A stretch of DNA of 12,132 nucleotides from an uncultured archaeon (GTDB lineage Archaea > Asgardarchaeota > Jordiarchaeia > Jordiarchaeales > Jordiarchaeaceae). The translations under genes and the position numbers were made by a program. A model generated the notes under the pieces. The model ran no database searches. It saw only the letters and a program-made list of their open reading frames with translations, and was not told where the DNA came from. Location: positions 1 through 12,132 of the forward strand of contig CAZECW010000148.1 in the NCBI GenBank assembly GCA_964510585.1, given 5' to 3'. The stretch's first letter is position 1. Each line of letters begins with the position of its first letter. Of this stretch, positions 12-12,132 are shown one piece after another.

Positions 12-146
12 CAGCAAAACATAAATGGGCAGGATGAGAATAACAGTTTGGAGTAGTGTTTCTGGCATTTTTATCACTAGTTATTTACTTGCAGAAGCAC
101 TACTCCAATTTTTCGGTTCAAATTGCACCAGAAACTTTTTATGCCC
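12..146 (+). repeat. Copy 1 of a >=135-bp hairpin-containing non-coding repeat; inverted partner at 11996-12132
   Basis: Manual alignment to the reverse complement of 11996-12132 gives about 112 matches over about 138 columns (~80%). Shared blocks include CATAAATGGG, TGAGAAT, TTGGAG, ATCACT, GAAGCACTACTCCAAT, TTTCGGTTCAAA and AAACTTTTTAYGCCC. Internal stem 48-64/92-108. Confidence 0.93.
130..142 (+). promoter_or_regulatory. Candidate archaeal BRE/TATA promoter (AGAAAC-TTTTTAT) for the dehydrogenase-ior-acd operon, lying inside the repeat end
   Basis: Purine-rich run followed by a T-rich TATA-like box about 80 bp upstream of the first start codon. It resembles AGAAGAC-TTTTATA upstream of the thiolase gene (minus strand, 10445-10458). 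Confidence 0.45.
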
Positions 147-3724: not shown

Positions 3725-5157
3725 TGTCTGAAGAAAACCGGATTGTCCAGCAACTCACCCCCCTTTTTAAACCCTCGTCTGTTGCCATAATAGGAGCCTC
3801 CTCCACCCCCATGAAGTTCCCAACCTGGGTCACATCCACCGCCCTAAAAAGCGGTTTCCGGGGTAAAATATATCTTGTAAATCCCAGAACCAAAGAAATC
3901 CAAGGAATAAAAACCTACCCCAGCATATTAGACATAAAGGATAACGTGGACCTGGCGGCAATAATAATACCCGCGGAACTAATTCCGGGCGTGATGGAGG
4001 AATGCGTTGAGAAGGGTGTTAAGGCTGCAATCATATTTTCTTCGGGTTTCAGAGAAATAGGGGAAAAGGGAATAAAAAGGGAAGAGGAAATACTCAGAAT
4101 AGCTAGGAGAGGGAACATTAGGCTGGTTGGCCCCAACTGTATGGGAATCTACAGCTCAGAAGTAAACCTCACCCTATCCATAATTTCATTTAAGGAGAAG
4201 GGAGAGATAGCATTCATAACTCAGAGCGGCGGCTACGGCATAGAGATATGCTCCTCGGCTATGTCTAAGGGCATAAATTTTAGCAAGTTCATAAGCGTGG
4301 GCGACAAAATAGACATCCAAGACTATGAGTACCTGGAGTACCTTTACCAAGACCCAGACACCAAAGCAATTATGATGTACATAGAGGGAATAGAGAAGGG
4401 AAGGGAATTCCTAAACGCTGCAAAAAAGGTAACTCGAAAGAAGCCCATATTTGTAATAAAAATTGGAAGAACAATGGAAGGCAGCAGAGCCGCAAGCTCC
4501 CACACTGGCGCACTAGCTGGAAAAGACGCTATATACGACGCAGTTTTCAAGCAGAGCGGAATAATAAGAGCATATGATGTGGAAGAACTCTTCGACTATC
4601 TAAAAGCCTACCTGACTCTACCCCTACCAAAGGGAAACCGCGTGGGACTACTCGTGGGAAGCGGCGGGGTGGGCTGCGCAGCCACAGATAAATGCATAGA
4701 GTTGGGTCTACAGGTTCCAGAAATAAGCGAAGAAAACAAAAAAATGTTAAAAACTATTCTCCCAGAATTCGCATCCGTCAGGAACCCAGTAGACTTCACA
4801 GCATCCGGAGCACAGGGAATATTCACAAACACCCAAGTACTCAAAAAGCTCTTTGCAGACCCAAACATTGACGCCTGGTTTTTCGGAGGCTTCACCAGCT
4901 CATCCATAGCAGAAATAAAAGACATAATAGAACAATTCAGACCAGTCATAGACAAAATAAATTCCAAAGATTTAATGGGCGAACTCAAAGTGCCTCTAGT
5001 TGGATCCATGGATGAAAACGATATAGTTAGACCAATTATGGAAAAAATGTTCGGCGCAGTATTCTACCCAACACCCGAAAGAGCGATCCGAGCGATATCC
5101 GCACTACACAGATACGGAAAATATTTGGAAATGATCAAAAAATGTGTGAACGGTTGA
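3721..5157 (+). CDS. acdA: Acetate/acyl-CoA ligase (ADP-forming) alpha subunit
   Basis: FKPSSVAIIGAS CoA-binding fold, VGPNCMG, AFITQSGG, phospho-His motif SHTGALAG, NPVDFT. GTGATG start overlaps the iorB stop (ATG3724 is the alternative start). Confidence 0.9.
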   Translation: MMSEENRIVQQLTPLFKPSSVAIIGASSTPMKFPTWVTSTALKSGFRGKIYLVNPRTKEIQGIKTYPSILDIKDNVDLAAIIIPAELIPGVMEECVEKGVKAAIIFSSGFREIGEKGIKREEEILRIARRGNIRLVGPNCMGIYSSEVNLTLSIISFKEKGEIAFITQSGGYGIEICSSAMSKGINFSKFISVGDKIDIQDYEYLEYLYQDPDTKAIMMYIEGIEKGREFLNAAKKVTRKKPIFVIKIGRTMEGSRAASSHTGALAGKDAIYDAVFKQSGIIRAYDVEELFDYLKAYLTLPLPKGNRVGLLVGSGGVGCAATDKCIELGLQVPEISEENKKMLKTILPEFASVRNPVDFTASGAQGIFTNTQVLKKLFADPNIDAWFFGGFTSSSIAEIKDIIEQFRPVIDKINSKDLMGELKVPLVGSMDENDIVRPIMEKMFGAVFYPTPERAIRAISALHRYGKYLEMIKKCVNG

Positions 5158-5159
5158 CT

Positions 5160-5200
5160 GTACTGATATAAATGTTATAAAAATAAAGGGGGAGGGAAGG
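5160..5200 (-). terminator. Possible pyrimidine/oligo-T archaeal terminator after the SDR gene
   Basis: The minus strand reads CCCTTCCCTCCCCCTTTATTTTTATAACATTTAT directly after the SDR stop, in a 47-bp convergent gap. Confidence 0.4.
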
Positions 5201-5204
5201 GTTT

Positions 5205-6158
5205 CTAGCTTAGGGCACTCATTATTATTCCCGCTAATTCTTCTCTTGGGGGCTGTTTTGCTATTAGTTCTTTTAGTTTTGGCCCTATTTCTTCCGGCTT
5301 CCAGAATCCTGGTGGAGAGCGTTTCACGGGTTCGCTGGATTTCCAGCTGTGCAGCAGCCACATGTTCCCGCCAACCACTCTTATAACTTGGCCGGTTACA
5401 TCTTTAGCCTCGTCGGAAGCTAGGTAAACCACAAGGGGAGCCATAGCTTCGGGACTCAAGACGTCGTATCCATACTTCTTTTCGAAATCCTCCTTAGTTC
5501 CCATCATAGGAGCCAGTGAGGGCGTTGCCTCGGTTGTTAGTCTGGTTCGGGCAACAGGTACTATAACATTGGCTGTTACCCCGTATTTCGCCATTTCTTT
5601 GGCCACTATGAGGGTAAAGGCGGTTATTCCGGCTTTCGCGGCTCCGTAGTTGCTCTGACCTGGATTATATAGTAGTCCAGCGTCGGAGGTGGTGTTTATT
5701 ATTCTTCCTGCTACGGGTTTTCCTTCTTTGGACTGGGCTCTCCAGTAGTTGCAGGCGTGTCTGGTGCAGTTGAATGTTCCCTTGAGGTGAACCCCTATTA
5801 CTGCGTCGAAATCTTCCTCTTCCATGTTGAATATCATTTTGTCTCTAAGGATTCCCGCATTGTTGACCAGTATGTCCAATTTGCCAAAGGTGCTAATGGC
5901 TTGATCAATTATTCTTTTTGCTCCCTGGAAGCTTGTGACGCTCTCATAGTTGGGGGCGGCTTCCCCTCCCATCTTCTTGATTTCGTTTACTACGTCGTCG
6001 GCTGGACCGTGGAACTCGCCTTTTCCATTGTGGCTTCCGCCCATATCGTTTACTATGACTTTTGCTCCGTGTTTTGCTAGAAGTAGGGCTTCTTCTCGTC
6101 CTAAACCTCTTCCAGCGCCAGTAACTATAGCTACTTTACCTTTAAGTGATATTGGCAT
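5205..6158 (-). CDS. Short-chain dehydrogenase/reductase, MFE-2 (3R)-hydroxyacyl-CoA dehydrogenase / PRK07791-like
   Basis: TGAGRGLG, VIVNDMGG, LVNNAGILRD, VHLKGTF, RIINTTSDAG, GQSNYGAAK. SD GGTGA at 6166-6170 (minus strand), 7 nt before the ATG. Confidence 0.88.
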   Translation of the reverse strand: MPISLKGKVAIVTGAGRGLGREEALLLAKHGAKVIVNDMGGSHNGKGEFHGPADDVVNEIKKMGGEAAPNYESVTSFQGAKRIIDQAISTFGKLDILVNNAGILRDKMIFNMEEEDFDAVIGVHLKGTFNCTRHACNYWRAQSKEGKPVAGRIINTTSDAGLLYNPGQSNYGAAKAGITAFTLIVAKEMAKYGVTANVIVPVARTRLTTEATPSLAPMMGTKEDFEKKYGYDVLSPEAMAPLVVYLASDEAKDVTGQVIRVVGGNMWLLHSWKSSEPVKRSPPGFWKPEEIGPKLKELIAKQPPREELAGIIMSALS

Positions 6159-6240
6159 TTTTATATCACCCTAAAAAGCAACTATTAATAATTCGATTAC
6201 CATTTAGATAACTGATTCATAAGCATTTCGTCTACTTTAA

Positions 6241-6275
6241 GAGGGCAGCGTAGAAATGTTGGATTCTACTCCCTC
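6241..6275. other. Imperfect hairpin in the divergent SDR/ATPase intergenic region
   Basis: GAGGG(6241-6245) pairs with CCCTC(6271-6275), and GTAGAA(6250-6255) pairs with TTCTAC(6264-6269); 8-nt loop. Confidence 0.4.
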
Positions 6276-6396
6276 ACTTCAAGGTTCTAAATTGAAAAAG
6301 AAGCTATATAAACGCTTATTTTGGAAGTGAAATCGAAAAATTCTAAATTGCTTCCTGCCCTTTTTTCTGCGGATAAAATATTAATACAATACAGAG

Positions 6397-6440
6397 TTAT
6401 ATAGAATTTATGTAAAGTTGCCTTCATGGTTTAGAGGAGG
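6397..6440 (+). promoter_or_regulatory. Candidate TATA box (TTATATA, 6397-6403) and SD (GGAGG, 6436-6440) for the P-type ATPase
   Basis: TTATATA preceded by ACAGAG; GAGGAGG about 30 bp downstream; in-frame ATA 8 nt after the SD. Confidence 0.55.
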
Positions 6441-6475
6441 ACTCCAGTATAATTGAGATTAAAAACTGGCACAGT

Positions 6476-9163
6476 ATGCCTATTGAGGAAATAATGAAAA
6501 TTCTGGAAACCAGCCCCAAAGGCCTTACCAAGGAGGAGGCCTTCAGAAGACTGGAATTGTATGGCCCCAACAAGGTTCAAGAAGTGAGAAGACTTTCTCC
6601 CCTGAAACTTTTTTTGGAACAGTTTCGTAACGCCCTGAACTACATCCTCATTTTGGCCGTTACAATCTCAATAATCCTTGGAAATACCTTGGACGCTATG
6701 ATAATCATTGTGATACTTTTATTCAACGCCACTTTAGGGTTTGTTCAGGAGTACCGCTCAGAAAAAGCCCTGGAAGCCCTTAAAGAGTTATCGGCACCCA
6801 AAACCATAGTTGTACGAGAAGGAAAAGAGAGAGAAATCAAAACCGAAGAACTGGTTCCCGGAGACCTAGTAATCCTCAATACTGGAGATAAAGTTCCCGC
6901 AGACATACGCCTCATCACCTCTGTGAGGCTGAGGGCCCTAGAATCCATACTCACCGGCGAATCTGGCTCTGAAGAAAAAGTTACCGGAGAGCTACCAGAA
7001 GATACACCCCTAGTAGACCGCTTAAACATGGTCTACTCCGGAACAGTCATCACAGGAGGTAGAGGCTCAGGGATAGTTGTAGCCACCGGCATGAACACCG
7101 AGGTTGGAAAGATCGCGAAAGAAATTTCAGTAGCTGGTGAAGAAAAAACACCTCTCCAGAAGAAAATATCACGCCTAGCAGTTTATCTGGCAGTAATCGC
7201 CTTCATATTTGCAGGCATCCAAGCGATTCTAGCATTTGTGAGGGGTATACCTACATCGGATATACTTTTATTGGCTCTCGCCTCAGTGATTCACTTCATT
7301 CCAGAAGGCCTCATAGCTGTGGTAACCATAGTTCTAGTCATTGGCGTCAGAATAATGGCCAGGAGGAACGCCATAATTAGAAACTTGCAGGCGGTGGAAA
7401 CTCTTGGCTCCGCCACTGTGATATGCACAGATAAAACGGGTACACTCACCAAAAACCAGATGACAGTACGAGTAATATATTTGAATGGTGAAGTCATAGA
7501 GGTAACCGGTGAGGGCTACACGCCGGTAGGTGAATTCCGAAAAAATGGAGCGGTAATAAATCCAAAGGAGAACCCCAACCTCCTACTGTTCCTCAGAGCC
7601 ATGGCTCTGTGTAATGATGCCCGTCTTGTCTCAGAGAACGGCAGATACTCTATAGTTGGGGATCCCACTGAGGGGGCGCTGGTGGTTGCGGCAGCCAAGG
7701 GAGGAGTTAACAAGGAGGAGGAAGAAAAAGAAAACCCTAGAATAGATGAGATTCCCTTTGAGTCTGAACTGGCCTGTATGGCTACGGTTCACGAATTTAC
7801 AGAGGAGGAAAAATATGTTTATGCTAAGGGCTCCCCTGAACGCATGATTAGCCTCTGCAACGAGATATACATAAGAGATCAGATTATTCCAATTACCGAT
7901 GAGCTTCGGAAACAGGTGTTGGAGGTAAGCCACGAGTTCGCATCTAAAGGTTACAGGGTCCTAGGACTTTCCTATAGGGTTGTTGGCAGTTCAAAGTACC
8001 GTTTGGCTAGAGAGGACTGCGGGAAAGACCTGGTTTTTCTGGGATTGGTGGGAATGGTGGATCCCCCCAGAAGAGAGGTCATAGAAGCGGTTGAAAAGTG
8101 TAAAACTGCTGGCATAAAGGTTGTCATGATTACTGGAGACCACCGGGAAACAGCTCGAGCCATAGCCCAAGAAGTGGGAATAATGACCAAAAAAGACCTG
8201 ATACTGGAGGGCAGAGAACTAGACAATATTCCAGAGGAGGAGTTTGAAAAAATTGTGGATTCAGTTAAAGTATATGCCCGAAATGAACCCCGCCACAAGC
8301 TCAGAATAGTGAAAGCCCTAAGGAAAAAGGGGCACATTGTGGCCATGACTGGTGACGGCGTAAATGATGCTCCCGCGTTAAAGGAGGCGGACATAGGTAT
8401 CGCTATGGGAATTACGGGAACACAGCTTGCCAAGGAAACATCCAACATGGTTCTGGCTGATGATAACTTTGCATCCATAGTGGCAGCAATAGAGGAGGGA
8501 CGAACCTCATTTAACAATTTGAGAAGAGTGGTACTTTACCTGATAACAACCAGCATCGCTGGAGGCTTCATCCTACTCTCCTCTCTGCTCCTAGGATTGC
8601 CCCTACCCTTCCTTCCTTTGCAGATACTTTGGATTAACTTGGTTACAGATGGTATCTGCGACAAAACCCTGGCAATTGAACCCCGGTATAGAGACGTCCT
8701 CAAAGATCCCCCCAGACCCCCAAAAGAGAGTATTGTTAACAGAGGAGTAATCTACCAGATAGCATTCCTATCAGCAATTATGATTATTGGAACAATGTGC
8801 GTCTACTACTTTTCCCTCCAATCCCTAGGATTGTCATACATCTGGAGGGGGTACGAGGAGCCTCGAACAATGGCTTTCGCAACCATTATCTTCTTCCAGC
8901 TTTTCAATGCTTTGAACATAAGGTCTCGGGAGAACTCCATTTTCAAAATAGGACTCCTCAAAAACAAATATTTCGCAGTAGGGTTTATTTTCTCAATGAT
9001 TTTGAACTTCTCCATAGTTTATGTACCGTTCTTCCACCAGCTGTTTGAAATCACACCACTGAACATTTACGATTGGCTCATAGTGTTCTTGGTAAGCAGC
9101 ACCATCCTCCTGATAGAAGAAATAAGAAAGGCTGTAGCACCAAAACTATTCACAAAGAGATAA
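6476..9163 (+). CDS. P-type cation-transporting ATPase, type IIA-like (Ca2+-ATPase family); true start probably ATA at 6449
   Basis: TGES (A domain), PEGL (M4), DKTGT phosphorylation motif, KGSPE, DPPR, MITGD, TGDGVNDAPALK, QILWINLVTDG (M6), and hydrophobic segments consistent with a 10-TM architecture. Confidence 0.95.
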   Translation: MPIEEIMKILETSPKGLTKEEAFRRLELYGPNKVQEVRRLSPLKLFLEQFRNALNYILILAVTISIILGNTLDAMIIIVILLFNATLGFVQEYRSEKALEALKELSAPKTIVVREGKEREIKTEELVPGDLVILNTGDKVPADIRLITSVRLRALESILTGESGSEEKVTGELPEDTPLVDRLNMVYSGTVITGGRGSGIVVATGMNTEVGKIAKEISVAGEEKTPLQKKISRLAVYLAVIAFIFAGIQAILAFVRGIPTSDILLLALASVIHFIPEGLIAVVTIVLVIGVRIMARRNAIIRNLQAVETLGSATVICTDKTGTLTKNQMTVRVIYLNGEVIEVTGEGYTPVGEFRKNGAVINPKENPNLLLFLRAMALCNDARLVSENGRYSIVGDPTEGALVVAAAKGGVNKEEEEKENPRIDEIPFESELACMATVHEFTEEEKYVYAKGSPERMISLCNEIYIRDQIIPITDELRKQVLEVSHEFASKGYRVLGLSYRVVGSSKYRLAREDCGKDLVFLGLVGMVDPPRREVIEAVEKCKTAGIKVVMITGDHRETARAIAQEVGIMTKKDLILEGRELDNIPEEEFEKIVDSVKVYARNEPRHKLRIVKALRKKGHIVAMTGDGVNDAPALKEADIGIAMGITGTQLAKETSNMVLADDNFASIVAAIEEGRTSFNNLRRVVLYLITTSIAGGFILLSSLLLGLPLPFLPLQILWINLVTDGICDKTLAIEPRYRDVLKDPPRPPKESIVNRGVIYQIAFLSAIMIIGTMCVYYFSLQSLGLSYIWRGYEEPRTMAFATIIFFQLFNALNIRSRENSIFKIGLLKNKYFAVGFIFSMILNFSIVYVPFFHQLFEITPLNIYDWLIVFLVSSTILLIEEIRKAVAPKLFTKR

Positions 9164-9187
9164 AAAATATTTTTGAGAAAAAAAGAT
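9161..9187. terminator. Possible bidirectional oligo-T terminator between the convergent ATPase and thiolase genes
   Basis: 12-bp palindrome AAAAATATTTTT (9163-9174) plus an A7 run (T7 on the minus strand) in a 50-bp convergent gap. Confidence 0.45.
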
Positions 9188-9213
9188 GTTCCCTACCTTC
9201 GCTACGAAGAGAT

Positions 9214-10371
9214 TTATCTCTGGAAAATGTGCACAACAATATTATTCCCAAAACCGCCGAAATTGACTGATAATCCTGTTTCGCATTTGGGCACTTGGCG
9301 TTTTCCAGCCTCCCCTCTTAGTTGCCAAGTGATTTCAACCGCCTGAGCCACACCGGTGGCCCCAAGAGGATGACCTCTGGCCTTAAGTCCTCCGCTGGGA
9401 TTTATGGGTAGTTCTCCATCAAGCCAAGTTTTTCCCTCCTCAACGGCTTTGGCTCCCTCTCCCTTCTTAAAGAAACCCACATCCTCTGATTGCACAATCT
9501 CCAGTATGGTGAAGGCGTCATGTAGCTCTGCAAAATCTATGTCCTGCGGTTTGAGCTTAGCCATAGAATATGCCTTTTGAGCAGCCTCCCTCAAAGCTTC
9601 CAAAACAGTTGGGTCCTCACGCTCAGCAACCATCTGAATATCTGTAGCTTGCCCAAACCCCTTAATCAGCACTGGGGTATCACTGTACTCTCTAGCTTTA
9701 TCCGCTGCGCAAAGCACTAAGGAAGCAGCCCCGTCACTCACGGGGCAAACATCGAACAGGCGTAGTGGATCTGCAATAATTGGTGAGGTCAACGCCTTTT
9801 CCAGGGTTATTTCTTTCTGGAAGTGAGCGTAAGGGTTGTGGGCCCCATTTTTGTGGTTTTTAACCGCCACCAATGAGAGCAGCTCTCTCTTAACATTATA
9901 CTTCTTCAAATATAACTGGGCAAGAAGCCCCCCAAGGGAGGGTAAAGTAACACCATACTTGTACTCCGCAGTTGGGTGTGTTAAAGTCGCCACCGAAGAA
10001 CTAACCTTGGGATTGGGTATGGAAGTCATTTTTTCCACACCAACAACCAAAACAAGGTTGGAAACACCAGATGCGATGGCTTGGAAACCTTCCTTTGTGG
10101 CTGAGCCGCCACTCGCCGGACCATTTTCTATTTTGTCTGCGGCTGCAGGTAGCAGATTGAGTCTATCGGCAAGCACACTTGCAATACCAGTCATCCTATT
10201 GAATTCTCCAGAAAACATGTTACCCACATAAACCGCGTCAAAATCACTCTCAGAAGCATTGGCGTCAGAAATCGCCCTGAAACTAGCCTCCACCATAAGA
10301 TCAGTAAGGGACTTGTCTTCAAGCTGCCCAAACCGCGTCATGCCGCAACCAATAATGGCAACACCACGCAT
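9214..10371 (-). CDS. SCP2-type thiolase-fold protein lacking the canonical catalytic cysteines
   Basis: VAIIGCGMTRFG, VGVEKM, PVSDGAASLVL, ELHDAF, NPSGGLKARGHPLGATG. The CxS position reads ENGPAS. ATG10371 lies 8 nt after GGGGG(10380-10384); TTG10386 and ATG10377 are alternative starts. Confidence 0.9.
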   Translation of the reverse strand: MRGVAIIGCGMTRFGQLEDKSLTDLMVEASFRAISDANASESDFDAVYVGNMFSGEFNRMTGIASVLADRLNLLPAAADKIENGPASGGSATKEGFQAIASGVSNLVLVVGVEKMTSIPNPKVSSSVATLTHPTAEYKYGVTLPSLGGLLAQLYLKKYNVKRELLSLVAVKNHKNGAHNPYAHFQKEITLEKALTSPIIADPLRLFDVCPVSDGAASLVLCAADKAREYSDTPVLIKGFGQATDIQMVAEREDPTVLEALREAAQKAYSMAKLKPQDIDFAELHDAFTILEIVQSEDVGFFKKGEGAKAVEEGKTWLDGELPINPSGGLKARGHPLGATGVAQAVEITWQLRGEAGKRQVPKCETGLSVNFGGFGNNIVVHIFQR

Positions 10372-10444
10372 AAACATAACCCCCAAAAATTAAATAACCA
10401 CCATACAAAAATGATTATGCTTTTTGAATTCTTAGTTCACTTAC

Positions 10445-10458
10445 TATAAAAGTCTTCT
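10445..10458 (-). promoter_or_regulatory. Candidate BRE/TATA for the thiolase gene
   Basis: The minus strand reads AGAAGACTTTTATA about 75 bp upstream of the start. Confidence 0.45.
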
Positions 10459-10604
10459 CATAAACAAGGTTGCGACCAAAAATTGGAGCATTTTTTTAAG
10501 GCATCATGTATTTAGCCGCTGGAAATATAGATTTATTCGGTTCCCCCTTCTCTTTGAAAAGATAGCTTCTGGTGGTGCCTTTTAAATTAGCGTATGTTTT
10601 AAGG

Positions 10605-11108
10605 CTACCAAATCTTTTTTTCATATTTCAGAGTGCGTTTAATTCTAGATTTTTTTTGCATTTTTGCTAGTTCTTTCTCAAAGTCTTCAATTGATAGGAG
10701 GCTATCCACGCTGTCCTTTAGAGCTTGGGGAATTGGCTGCCTGTAGACGTAGTATTTTCTGACGTCCTGTACGATTCTTTTTGAGCGTTCTGAGAGAATT
10801 GGAGCGTAACGGTAAAGTGCATCATTCTCTTCCTTATCCACAACGAAACTAAGTGTACCGATGCGCTCTTTTCCCCTAGCTTTCTCATCGGGAATGGAGA
10901 AATAATACACAAAAGCGCTCTTCTGTTCCTCTTGAATGGGAATTATGGATTCCCCCTCATCCACATGGTGACTTAAAGCAACCGCCCCAATCATTGTCTT
11001 CAAAGCAATTTTATCAGCAGTCTCCTTTTCGATTCCCTTAAAATAAACACTGGTGGGACCAACATCCTCGTCCACAATGGCCAGACAGATTCCCCTTTTT
11101 TCAAACAA
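10605..11108 (-). CDS. Small uDENN/longin-domain protein (folliculin/SMCR8 N-terminal-like), putative Asgard eukaryotic signature protein
   Basis: N-terminal beta-strand followed by VDEDVGP (the FxxxxGP motif of uDENN domains), and YYFSIPDEKARGKERIGTLSFVV, matching the DxxARGxxR motif of the FLCN/SMCR8 longin domain. Basic C-terminal tail. Recognised by motif recall, not by search. Confidence 0.7.
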   Translation of the reverse strand: MFEKRGICLAIVDEDVGPTSVYFKGIEKETADKIALKTMIGAVALSHHVDEGESIIPIQEEQKSAFVYYFSIPDEKARGKERIGTLSFVVDKEENDALYRYAPILSERSKRIVQDVRKYYVYRQPIPQALKDSVDSLLSIEDFEKELAKMQKKSRIKRTLKYEKKIW

Positions 11109-11239
11109 GGCACCACTTCCGCTTTTCCCTCAAACACAAGCCCAAAGGGAATCAAATATTTTAGAACTTATACAACCAGTAACCTTAATACTTTTGTATA
11201 AACGTAAATATAAACTTGTTGAAAAAACTTACTTTTGAG

Positions 11240-11995
11240 AGCATATACTATAACAAGTCTATTCATAGTGTTAGGATAAACTATAAACACATTTAAAAGG
11301 GTTAACATCCCCTCTGCTTAATCTACGCACTACACATAAGATTAATCATTGTTCTCTAATCTTGAAATATGCGTATTTTCCTTTTGCTACAGTAAAAATA
11401 TCAATTTATGATATGAGTTGAGAGAGAACAAAAATTACTTATTAATAATTGTTGGTAATCCATTAGCTCTGCTTAATTGTTCATCTAAAAAGTTATTAAT
11501 AGTCATAATTGATGCTTCTCACAACTTATTTAGGATTTTTCTCTAAAAAGATTTAAGTTTTTGAATCAAAACGGGCGTAAAACCTTTCTTTTTTGGCTCA
11601 TTTTTGTTTAAGGAGCTTTTTCTTTGCATAAATTGTTCAAAAACTTATCAAAAATATATTTATTTAAGTAGTTACTCAGTTGAGGGTTGCTTTATGCGCG
11701 GATTGCACCTGTGGCAATGTGAACTCTAAGTTTTTACCCTGAATTGGTAAAAACAGGACATTTTGTTCCCATTTCCCAAAAAATGAGAAAAAAAGATTAA
11801 AATTAGAAAAAATAAGGCAAAAAAGTCAATCTACCACAACCTCCACACAAAAAACTACCCAACCGTATAAGTTCTATTATTATCTGGATTTTCGATTACA
11901 GCAGCGAATTAGGTTAAAAACACCAAACAATTTAATTGGATTCTACATCGTCTATTATTGAATTTTATAGTGAAAATACATAATTACGAAAAATT
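11240..11995. other. Long AT-rich gene-free intergenic region
   Basis: No ORF of 60 aa or more in the six-frame track. Many A/T runs; contains short palindromes and repeats. Confidence 0.75.
11730..11754. other. Perfect 9-bp hairpin (possible terminator or protein-binding site)
   Basis: GTTTTTACC-ctgaatt-GGTAAAAAC. Confidence 0.5.
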
Positions 11996-12132
11996 GGGCG
12001 TAAAAAGTTTTTAGTGCAGTTTTGAACCGAAAGATTGGAGTAGTGCTTCAGCACAAAGTAGTAACAGTGATCAAAATGACAGAAGCACCACTCCAATTGG
12101 TCATTCTCACTCTACCCATTTATGCTTTACTA
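11996..12132 (-). repeat. Copy 2 (inverted) of the hairpin-containing repeat; runs to the window edge
   Basis: The reverse complement aligns to 12-146 at ~80%. Internal stem 12097-12082/12049-12034. Confidence 0.93.

Follow-up and report, generated by a model that had tools for sequence, protein, structure and literature searches.

A stand-alone FLCN/SMCR8-type longin in a hot-spring Asgard archaeon, derived by truncation of a longer paralogue

Our analysis of one contig from a hot-spring Asgard archaeon of the Freyarchaeum/Jordarchaeia group reveals a short gene, maintained by selection, whose product consists of a longin domain and a basic tail. In eukaryotic lysosomal nutrient signalling, FLCN, GATOR1, and C9orf72–SMCR8 are GAPs that set the nucleotide state of Rag or Arf GTPases. 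On balance, we favour the explanation that the short gene encodes a stand-alone longin of this GAP type, born by genus-level duplication and truncation, which by analogy with these systems would regulate a Rag/Arf-like GTPase together with its long paralogue.

RESULTS

The short gene is real and under purifying selection

The window, by which we mean the whole stretch of DNA analysed, is an entire contig of 12,132 bp (C148) in a MAG of 3.78 Mb, 217 contigs, and 96% completeness. The stretch is present in three hot-spring DNA runs, and no RNA run is listed as containing it. The first-pass annotation had described an open reading frame of 167 codons with three sequence motifs; the frame and all three motifs are present (VDEDVGP, residues 12–18; FSIPDEKARGKERIGTLSF, residues 70–88; and KMQKKSRIKRTLKYEKKIW, residues 149–167), and we add the strand, which that annotation had left out (Table 1).

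Seventeen orthologues were found, at 68–86% identity and with lengths of 166–167 aa (a single gene call gives 175 aa), in Candidatus Freyarchaeota, Freyarchaeum, or Jordarchaeum records and in hot-spring metagenomes. Comparison with two orthologues of equal length gives overall dN/dS values of 0.06 and 0.11, with 0.06 and 0.10 for residues 2–145 and 0.06 and 0.18 for the last 22 residues. The number and identity of the orthologues, together with the low dN/dS, rule out a chance open reading frame: the gene is real, and both its domain and its tail are under purifying selection.

The neighbours of the short gene in the window are metabolic or transport genes, in agreement with the setting first described: a thiolase-like gene 218 nt downstream, a P-type (P2-type) ATPase gene, an SDR gene, and genes for the alpha subunit of an ADP-forming acyl-CoA synthetase, for the alpha and beta subunits of indolepyruvate:ferredoxin oxidoreductase (IOR), and for a D-2-hydroxyacid dehydrogenase. 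The downstream neighbour (window 9214–10386, minus strand) encodes a thiolase-domain protein (NF004720, 488 bits). The window contains no small GTPase or roadblock gene, as had also been claimed, and no such gene adjoins the short or long Freyarchaeum genes either here or in the five other contexts examined.

Table 1. Coordinates of the short longin gene, its parts, and its candidate upstream elements, numbered along the window
Feature	Position (nt)	Strand	Basis or remark
Complete CDS	10605..11108	minus	TTG start, 167 aa plus stop; residues 2–11 conserved in 17 orthologues; dN/dS 0.06–0.11
FLCN/SMCR8-type longin (uDENN) domain, residues 1–145	10674..11108	minus	AF2 model, PF11704, VIA-align, end of homology to long paralogues
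GP motif G17-P18, start of β2, after D13-E14	11055..11060	minus	Invariant in 17 orthologues and 16 long paralogues
A77-R78-G79...R82, β4–β5 loop and just beyond	10863..10880	minus	Invariant in orthologues; R78 is the candidate arginine finger
Short-form-specific basic helix, residues 146–167	10608..10673	minus	22 residues, net charge +7, ends in invariant Trp
Candidate promoter/leader blocks	11114..11227	minus	Upstream alignment of six orthologues in three genomic contexts; function assigned from conservation only
Candidate SD-like block	11114-11129	minus	Upstream-region conservation
Candidate TATA-like box	11153-11162	minus	Upstream-region conservation
Candidate BRE/TATA-like block	11206-11227	minus	Upstream-region conservation

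The product has the fold of a GAP-type longin

The AlphaFold2 model of the short protein, computed from a 17-sequence alignment (mean pLDDT 84, pTM 0.81), has longin topology. Specifically, it comprises β1 (residues 5–13), β2 (17–24), α1 (28–46), β3 (52–58), β4 (63–74), β5 (80–91), and α2/3 (92–119), which is the β-β-α-β-β-β-α-α order typical of longins, and it is nearest to the longins of the GAP type. Beyond this core, the model has a short extra helix (residues 128–135) and then a long C-terminal helix of lower confidence (residues 143–166). The Pfam Folliculin model (PF11704) matches residues 60–120 at 27.3 bits, above its gathering threshold of 23.3 (E 3.8e-6); the six-frame search of the genome gives 26.8 bits for the same model, and the long paralogues score 27.5–28.3 bits. 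The C9orf72-like Pfam match is sub-threshold (13.4 bits).

Comparison of the model with known structures points the same way. A Foldseek search of the PDB places the Lokiarchaeal longin 8yqg at the top, followed by Kluyveromyces lactis Lst4, FLCN–FNIP2, C9orf72–SMCR8, and GATOR1 chains, this set having E values of 1e-4 to 1e-3. In all-against-representatives comparisons with VIA-align, the Z scores are 16.4 for 8yqg, 12.9 for Lst4, 12.7 for FLCN (6nzd_H), 12.6 for 7o2w_A, and 10.8 for GATOR1, versus at most 10.5 for TRAPP, sedlin, VAMP7, adaptor, and roadblock proteins. Shape searches of the ESM Atlas retrieve a Heimdallarchaeota cluster partly annotated as Folliculin (TM 0.86), vertebrate C9orf72 and SMCR8 clusters, a fungal "UDENN FLCN/SMCR8-type" cluster, and Promethearchaeota longin–Arf GTPase fusions. 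The language-model-feature search of the same atlas returns unnamed Promethearchaeota clusters and one NPR2 cluster at 19%, which we treat as leads only.

Searches at the level of sequence reach less far. Whether started from the short protein itself, from two relatives, or from two family profiles, HMMER searches of PDB sequences never reached FLCN, SMCR8, or NPRL2, and the sole PDB chain that a family sequence profile reached is 8yqg (E 8e-5). A 1,950-aa fish protein (P0043) among the profile matches was discarded, Pfam showing only low-complexity, multi-family noise in it. A homodimer prediction from two copies (alignment A1) scores 0.00 against a mark of 0.42 and weighs neither way.

Two other identities were considered and rejected. 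A roadblock protein would have α-β-β-α-β-β-β topology with an N-terminal helix, together with a Pfam match; the model opens with a β hairpin, the short protein has no match to Roadblock/LC7 (MglB-like, PF03259), and roadblock structures reach only Z 7.3–9.0. For NPRL2/NPR2, there is no match to PF06218 at E values up to 0.1, the NPRL2-specific C-terminal domain is absent, and the Z score of the GATOR1 chain lies below those of FLCN and Lst4.

Taken together, we conclude with high confidence that the short protein is an FLCN/SMCR8(/NPRL2)-type longin of an Asgard archaeon. The first-pass annotation, which had proposed a FLCN/SMCR8-like uDENN-longin protein lacking cDENN and dDENN modules, is thus upheld on several points: the Folliculin match is above threshold, the topology is that of a longin, the Foldseek search yields longin-fold matches to FLCN, Lst4, C9orf72–SMCR8, and GATOR1 chains, all relatives with a usable name are Asgard, and there is no C-terminal DENN module since the protein ends at residue 167.

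The GP motif of GAP-type longins and a candidate arginine finger are retained

The catalytic arginine fingers of the eukaryotic proteins are R164 in FLCN, R147 in SMCR8, and R78 in NPRL2. In the short protein, the arginine-containing segment (Table 1) falls within the Pfam Folliculin match, and A77, R78, G79, and R82 are each present in 15–16 of the 16 long paralogues; across a wider family of 31 sequences, R78 is found in 16 and R82 in 20. The local motif of human FLCN, which we take to be D-x-x-A-R-G-x-x-R, matches that of the short protein. From the loop position, the Pfam-matched segment, and this FLCN motif, we infer that R78 is the equivalent of FLCN R164, and we leave the equivalence at that level because the family HMMER profiles never reached the eukaryotic chains. 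FLCN Arg-164 has been identified as the catalytic finger for RagC (10.1101/2022.06.28.498039).

The second motif, GP, has been described as specific to the GAP-type longins FLCN, NPRL2, SMCR8, and C9orf72, in which it sits at the boundary between a loop and β2, spatially beside the arginine finger, and as occurring together with that finger in Asgard "FLCN/SMCR8-type longins" (PMC12290439, published in 2025). The short protein carries it at the start of β2, and in the wider-family alignment the glycine is conserved in 29 and the proline in 24 of the 31 sequences.

The short form is a recent, genus-level truncation

A profile search of 1.8 billion cluster representatives returned 91 relatives, most of them 360–390 aa long with the longin domain at the N terminus. 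The nearest are Freyarchaeota and Jordarchaeum proteins of 367–392 aa, with 65–77% identity to the short protein over residues 1–145. The similarity between short and long forms, in both nucleotides and protein, stops at window position 10673/10674 (codon 145); beyond residue 145, the tails of the two forms are unrelated.

The distribution of the two forms is uneven. Among 201 sampled Asgard genomes, 94 have a family member, presence being all-or-none by taxonomic family, and nearly all open frames are 350–500 aa long, complete short frames being essentially confined to this genus. Genomes of the sister family each carry one long copy, which aligns over its full length at ~31–32% identity; the ~370-aa form is conserved across the order, and it has relatives across Asgard lineages. 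Because the short form was found in one genus only, the ~370-aa form is kept across the order, and homology ends at residue 145, the short gene is derived, not ancestral: by sequence comparison it is a genus-level truncation of a ~370-aa gene, that is, a recent shortened duplicate. The suggestion in the first-pass annotation that it could be a minimal ancestral regulator is therefore not supported.

Gene order within the genus shows both tandem and dispersed arrangements. Ca. Freyarchaeum deiterrae (closed genome CP147778) and a JGI contig both show a long copy (367/368 aa), a second long copy (375/376 aa), and the short copy (166 aa) in tandem, followed by a gene for a 304/306-aa protein and a gene for a SNAP/TPR protein. 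The other three genomes of the genus each have one full-length long copy at a conserved locus, accompanied in two of them (G003 and G004) by a short copy at another place in the genome. In these two, the long copy lies in the order AP_endonuc_2, long longin, 306-aa protein, SNAP/TPR, IMPDH, and TYW2; the third (G002) has the long copy at the conserved locus, and the search found no short copy in it. The short gene stands alone beside the thiolase-like gene here and in one relative, and the short-copy region of G004 is syntenic with the window (positions 4715–11268 match at 85–91% identity). In G003 (L046:6940-9448, contig C82), the short longin gene is divergent to a gene for a 508-aa GvpD/KaiC-like ATPase.

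The conserved neighbourhood of the long gene in the genus (L033:6044-12462; L048; L049; L050:5001-7004) holds AP_endonuc_2, the long longin gene, the 306-aa gene, and SNAP/TPR. The AP_endonuc_2 neighbour is a xylose-isomerase-like TIM barrel, and the 306-aa protein has weak PCI/winged-helix similarity. A Heimdallarchaeota family member (380 aa) also adjoins an AP_endonuc_2 gene.

In the present MAG, the genome search found no long copy, no C-terminal module, and no second longin copy. The missing long copy is probably an assembly gap and not a loss, because three of its four conserved neighbours (the genes for the 306-aa protein, unk306, for the SNAP/TPR protein, and for the orthologous AP_endonuc_2) were likewise not found, and because contig C6, which carries the fourth, IMPDH, ends 234 nt beyond it (locus C6:13524-15269), where the long-gene block should begin.

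The AlphaFold2 model of the long form (pLDDT 79) comprises a longin domain, two linker helices, two β-β-β-α-β repeats, and a basic terminal helix. In the long paralogues of CP147778 (L033:7208-9747), a disordered stretch lies between the repeats and the basic helix. The C-terminal half of the long form has no Pfam match and no clear PDB or DENN match, and the Foldseek hits of the long form fall mostly on its longin domain, so that a DENN identity is not demonstrable for this half. Distant relatives of ~360 aa in Hod-, Thor-, and Promethearchaeota carry PF27109 (named SMCR8_C in the Atlas).

A duplicate that has lost its C-terminal module could be a regulatory or decoy subunit, which would use its longin domain to heterodimerise with the long form or would compete with it for the same GTPase without being catalytic, and would so cap, titrate, or re-target the complex. 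Derivation by duplication and loss of the C-terminal module, the tandem with two long paralogues in CP147778 and the JGI contig, the co-occurrence of short and long copies in three of the other five genomes in the genus, and a tail that is new and under selection would all suit such a subunit. We nevertheless regard it as unlikely. The GP motif, R78, and R82 are strictly retained in all 17 short orthologues, which would be unexpected if catalysis were dispensable; moreover, of the five genomes that carry the short gene, three have it relocated away from the long gene, and it has conserved upstream blocks of its own.

The C-terminal tail is basic and specific to the short form

[quoted passage not shown] K149, K161, E163, and W167 are invariant in the orthologues, and pLDDT falls to 54–65 in this region. 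The helical hydrophobic moment is low (μH 0.07–0.38), so the tail is not an amphipathic membrane helix. A plausible role for it would be to bind an anionic membrane or an acidic partner electrostatically, with the terminal Trp as an anchor.

The longin fold serves many roles that involve no GTPase, and a protein with such a tail could be a GTPase-independent longin platform, an adaptor or scaffold for a membrane or for another protein, with the tail as its main functional element and SNARE, adaptor σ/μ-N, or SRX longins as its models. The absence of a GTPase neighbour and a tail that is positive throughout would fit such a role, as would the breadth of the fold's use, VAMP7, Ykt6, Sec22, and AP σ/μ matching the model at Z 8–10. 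However, the matches to GAP-type longins are clearly stronger (Z 12.6–16.4), and the GP motif that is invariant here is reportedly absent from non-GAP longins (PMC12290439). In addition, the protein lacks a SNARE motif and a transmembrane segment, some orthologues have a tail charge of only +1, and the tail helix has no amphipathic character. We consider a platform of this kind even less probable than a decoy subunit.

Upstream blocks are conserved in three genomic contexts

The 1,024 nt upstream of the short gene reach the end of the contig and contain no open reading frame of more than 46 aa, no tRNA, and no Rfam match, which bears out the long non-coding region first described; Rfam and tRNA scans of the entire window likewise gave no match. 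Immediately before the gene, conserved blocks emerge when the upstream sequences of six orthologues, which lie in three different genomic contexts, are aligned (Table 1). In particular, all six have a AAAATATTT box ~50 nt ahead of the start and an SD-like GGGAAAAG.GG..GTG block, and five of them have a second TATA-like block ~100 nt upstream. Because these candidate blocks are conserved across three contexts, the short gene looks like a self-contained transcription unit.

Farther upstream, the sequence is repetitive. Inverted repeats of ~140 nt lie at both contig ends (window 12–146 and 11994–12132), and copies with 80–99% identity occur on at least 10 other contigs (C44, C77, C60, C126, C22, C214, C43, C59, C178, and others), in several cases at a contig end. 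Another dispersed repeat (window ~11667–11876) has copies on C184, C38, C195, and C27. Most of the long non-coding region therefore consists of dispersed repeats, and the 12-kb block is probably bracketed in this way because the assembly broke at a multi-copy element. The idea that the proximal promoter is itself a multi-copy element common to GTPase genes was rejected, since only the distal upstream parts are repeated in the genome.

A sequence that corresponds to the first 145 codons of a long paralogue and adjoins repeat-rich non-coding DNA at a contig end might be the pseudogenised, functionless 5′ half of a long gene in decay. The selection and conservation data effectively refute this reading, to which we give almost no credence: the 17 orthologues are intact and of constant length (166–167 aa, apart from the one 175-aa call) with an invariant C-terminal Trp, dN/dS is 0.06–0.18 with the tail included, and the upstream blocks are kept in three genomic contexts.

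DISCUSSION

A candidate regulator of Rag/Arf-like GTPases

The explanation that we favour can be set out as a series of proposed steps. A ~370-aa gene (longin, helical linker, two repeats, and basic C-terminal helix) would have been duplicated within one Jordarchaeia/Freyarchaeia genus, and everything beyond residue 145 of one copy would have been exchanged for a 22-residue basic helix ending in Trp. With the GP/Arg face of its longin sheet, the resulting short longin would dock on a small GTPase of Rag- or Arf-like type and insert R78 into the nucleotide pocket; the regulation would then be of the GAP type, as with FLCN, SMCR8, and NPRL2. By analogy with FLCN–FNIP, SMCR8–C9orf72, and NPRL2–NPRL3, it would probably form part of a longin–longin dimer with the long paralogue, and its basic tail would attach it electrostatically to an anionic surface, which could be that of a membrane or of an acidic partner.

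For the mechanism by itself, namely a GAP-type regulator of a Rag/Arf-like GTPase that is probably paired with the long paralogue, we put the prospects at slightly below even. Candidate clients are present in the genome, which has about 24 Arf/Ras-like HMM matches, including three clear Gtr1/RagA-type open reading frames of 306–412 aa, and 16 roadblock matches. Against the favoured explanation stand the lack of an adjacent GTPase or roadblock gene, the lack of Arg at the R78 position in about half of the wider family, the failure of the family HMMER profiles to reach the eukaryotic PDB chains, and the failure to find the long paralogue in this MAG.</find> On a Hodarchaeales contig (L054:345-2201), a gene for a 164-aa Ras-family protein, which has weak RING-finger matches, lies directly upstream of, and co-directional with, a gene for a 388-aa member of the longin family.

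Relation to known longin systems

The best structural match to the short protein, the longin domain of the Lokiarchaeota Roadblock-Longin protein 8yqg (solved as a dimer), superimposes with an rmsd of 2.4 over 139 residues; unlike the short protein, it is fused to a roadblock domain, and identity is only 10–14%. A search of the literature collection used here for 8yqg or "LokiRag" work found no paper. FLCN (with FNIP2) and yeast Lst7–Lst4 (6nzd, 6ulg, 8dhb, and 4zy8) share the longin fold with the short protein at Z 12.7–12.9, and FLCN shares in addition the Folliculin Pfam match, the GP motif, and, probably, the ARG..R motif in the segment of FLCN Arg-164; the short protein differs from them in having no DENN domain and no identified FNIP/Lst4-type partner, and in an identity of 10–17%. 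SMCR8–C9orf72 (CSW complex; 7o2w, 7mge, and 6v4u) and NPRL2–NPRL3 (GATOR1; 8fw5 and 9v0j) have the same GAP-type longin fold (Z 10.4–12.6), whereas the short protein lacks their C-terminal module, has a C9orf72-like match below threshold, and has no NPR2 match.

Closest in kind are the 15 published Asgard FLCN/SMCR8-type longins, which are like the short protein in Asgard origin, in the Pfam/UniProt family call, in the GP before β2, and in the Arg of the neighbouring loop, and for which the same GAP role, for Asgard Rag or Arf-related GTPases, has been proposed. The short protein differs from them in belonging to Freyarchaeum/Jordarchaeia, in being a genus-restricted truncation of a ~370-aa paralogue, and in its 22-residue basic tail ending in Trp. 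Since the combination of GP motif and Arg has already been reported in Asgard longins (PMC12290439), and DENN, FLCN-like, and NPRL2-like Asgard proteins had already been described (bioRxiv 10.1101/2020.10.19.343400), our fold and family assignment is supported but known, and the novelty is below what the first-pass annotation had assumed. The only new element is the lineage-specific duplication, truncation, acquisition of a new basic tail, and relocation in Jordarchaeia/Freyarchaeia.

Significance

Being a derived and not an ancestral form, the short gene leaves the published picture unchanged. It adds to that picture a small, soluble-looking candidate that retains the GP motif and the putative arginine finger, and it bears, in a testable way, on whether the unusual longin-based arginine-finger mechanism already worked in Asgard archaea; with identifiable long paralogues and defined candidate GTPases in one genome, the short protein is convenient for biochemistry. 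A bolder proposal, again by analogy and in our judgement somewhat unlikely, is that nature has pared the short protein down to a self-sufficient arginine-finger GAP for an Asgard Rag/Arf-like GTPase, or that the protein supplies the catalytic half of a longin complex of two or three paralogues acting on such a GTPase. If this were true, Freyarchaeum would have in its long-long-short cluster an archaeal equivalent of the heterodimeric GAPs FLCN–FNIP, NPRL2–NPRL3, and SMCR8–C9orf72, and the 145-residue domain of the short protein would offer the simplest test of whether the GAP mechanism predates eukaryotes.
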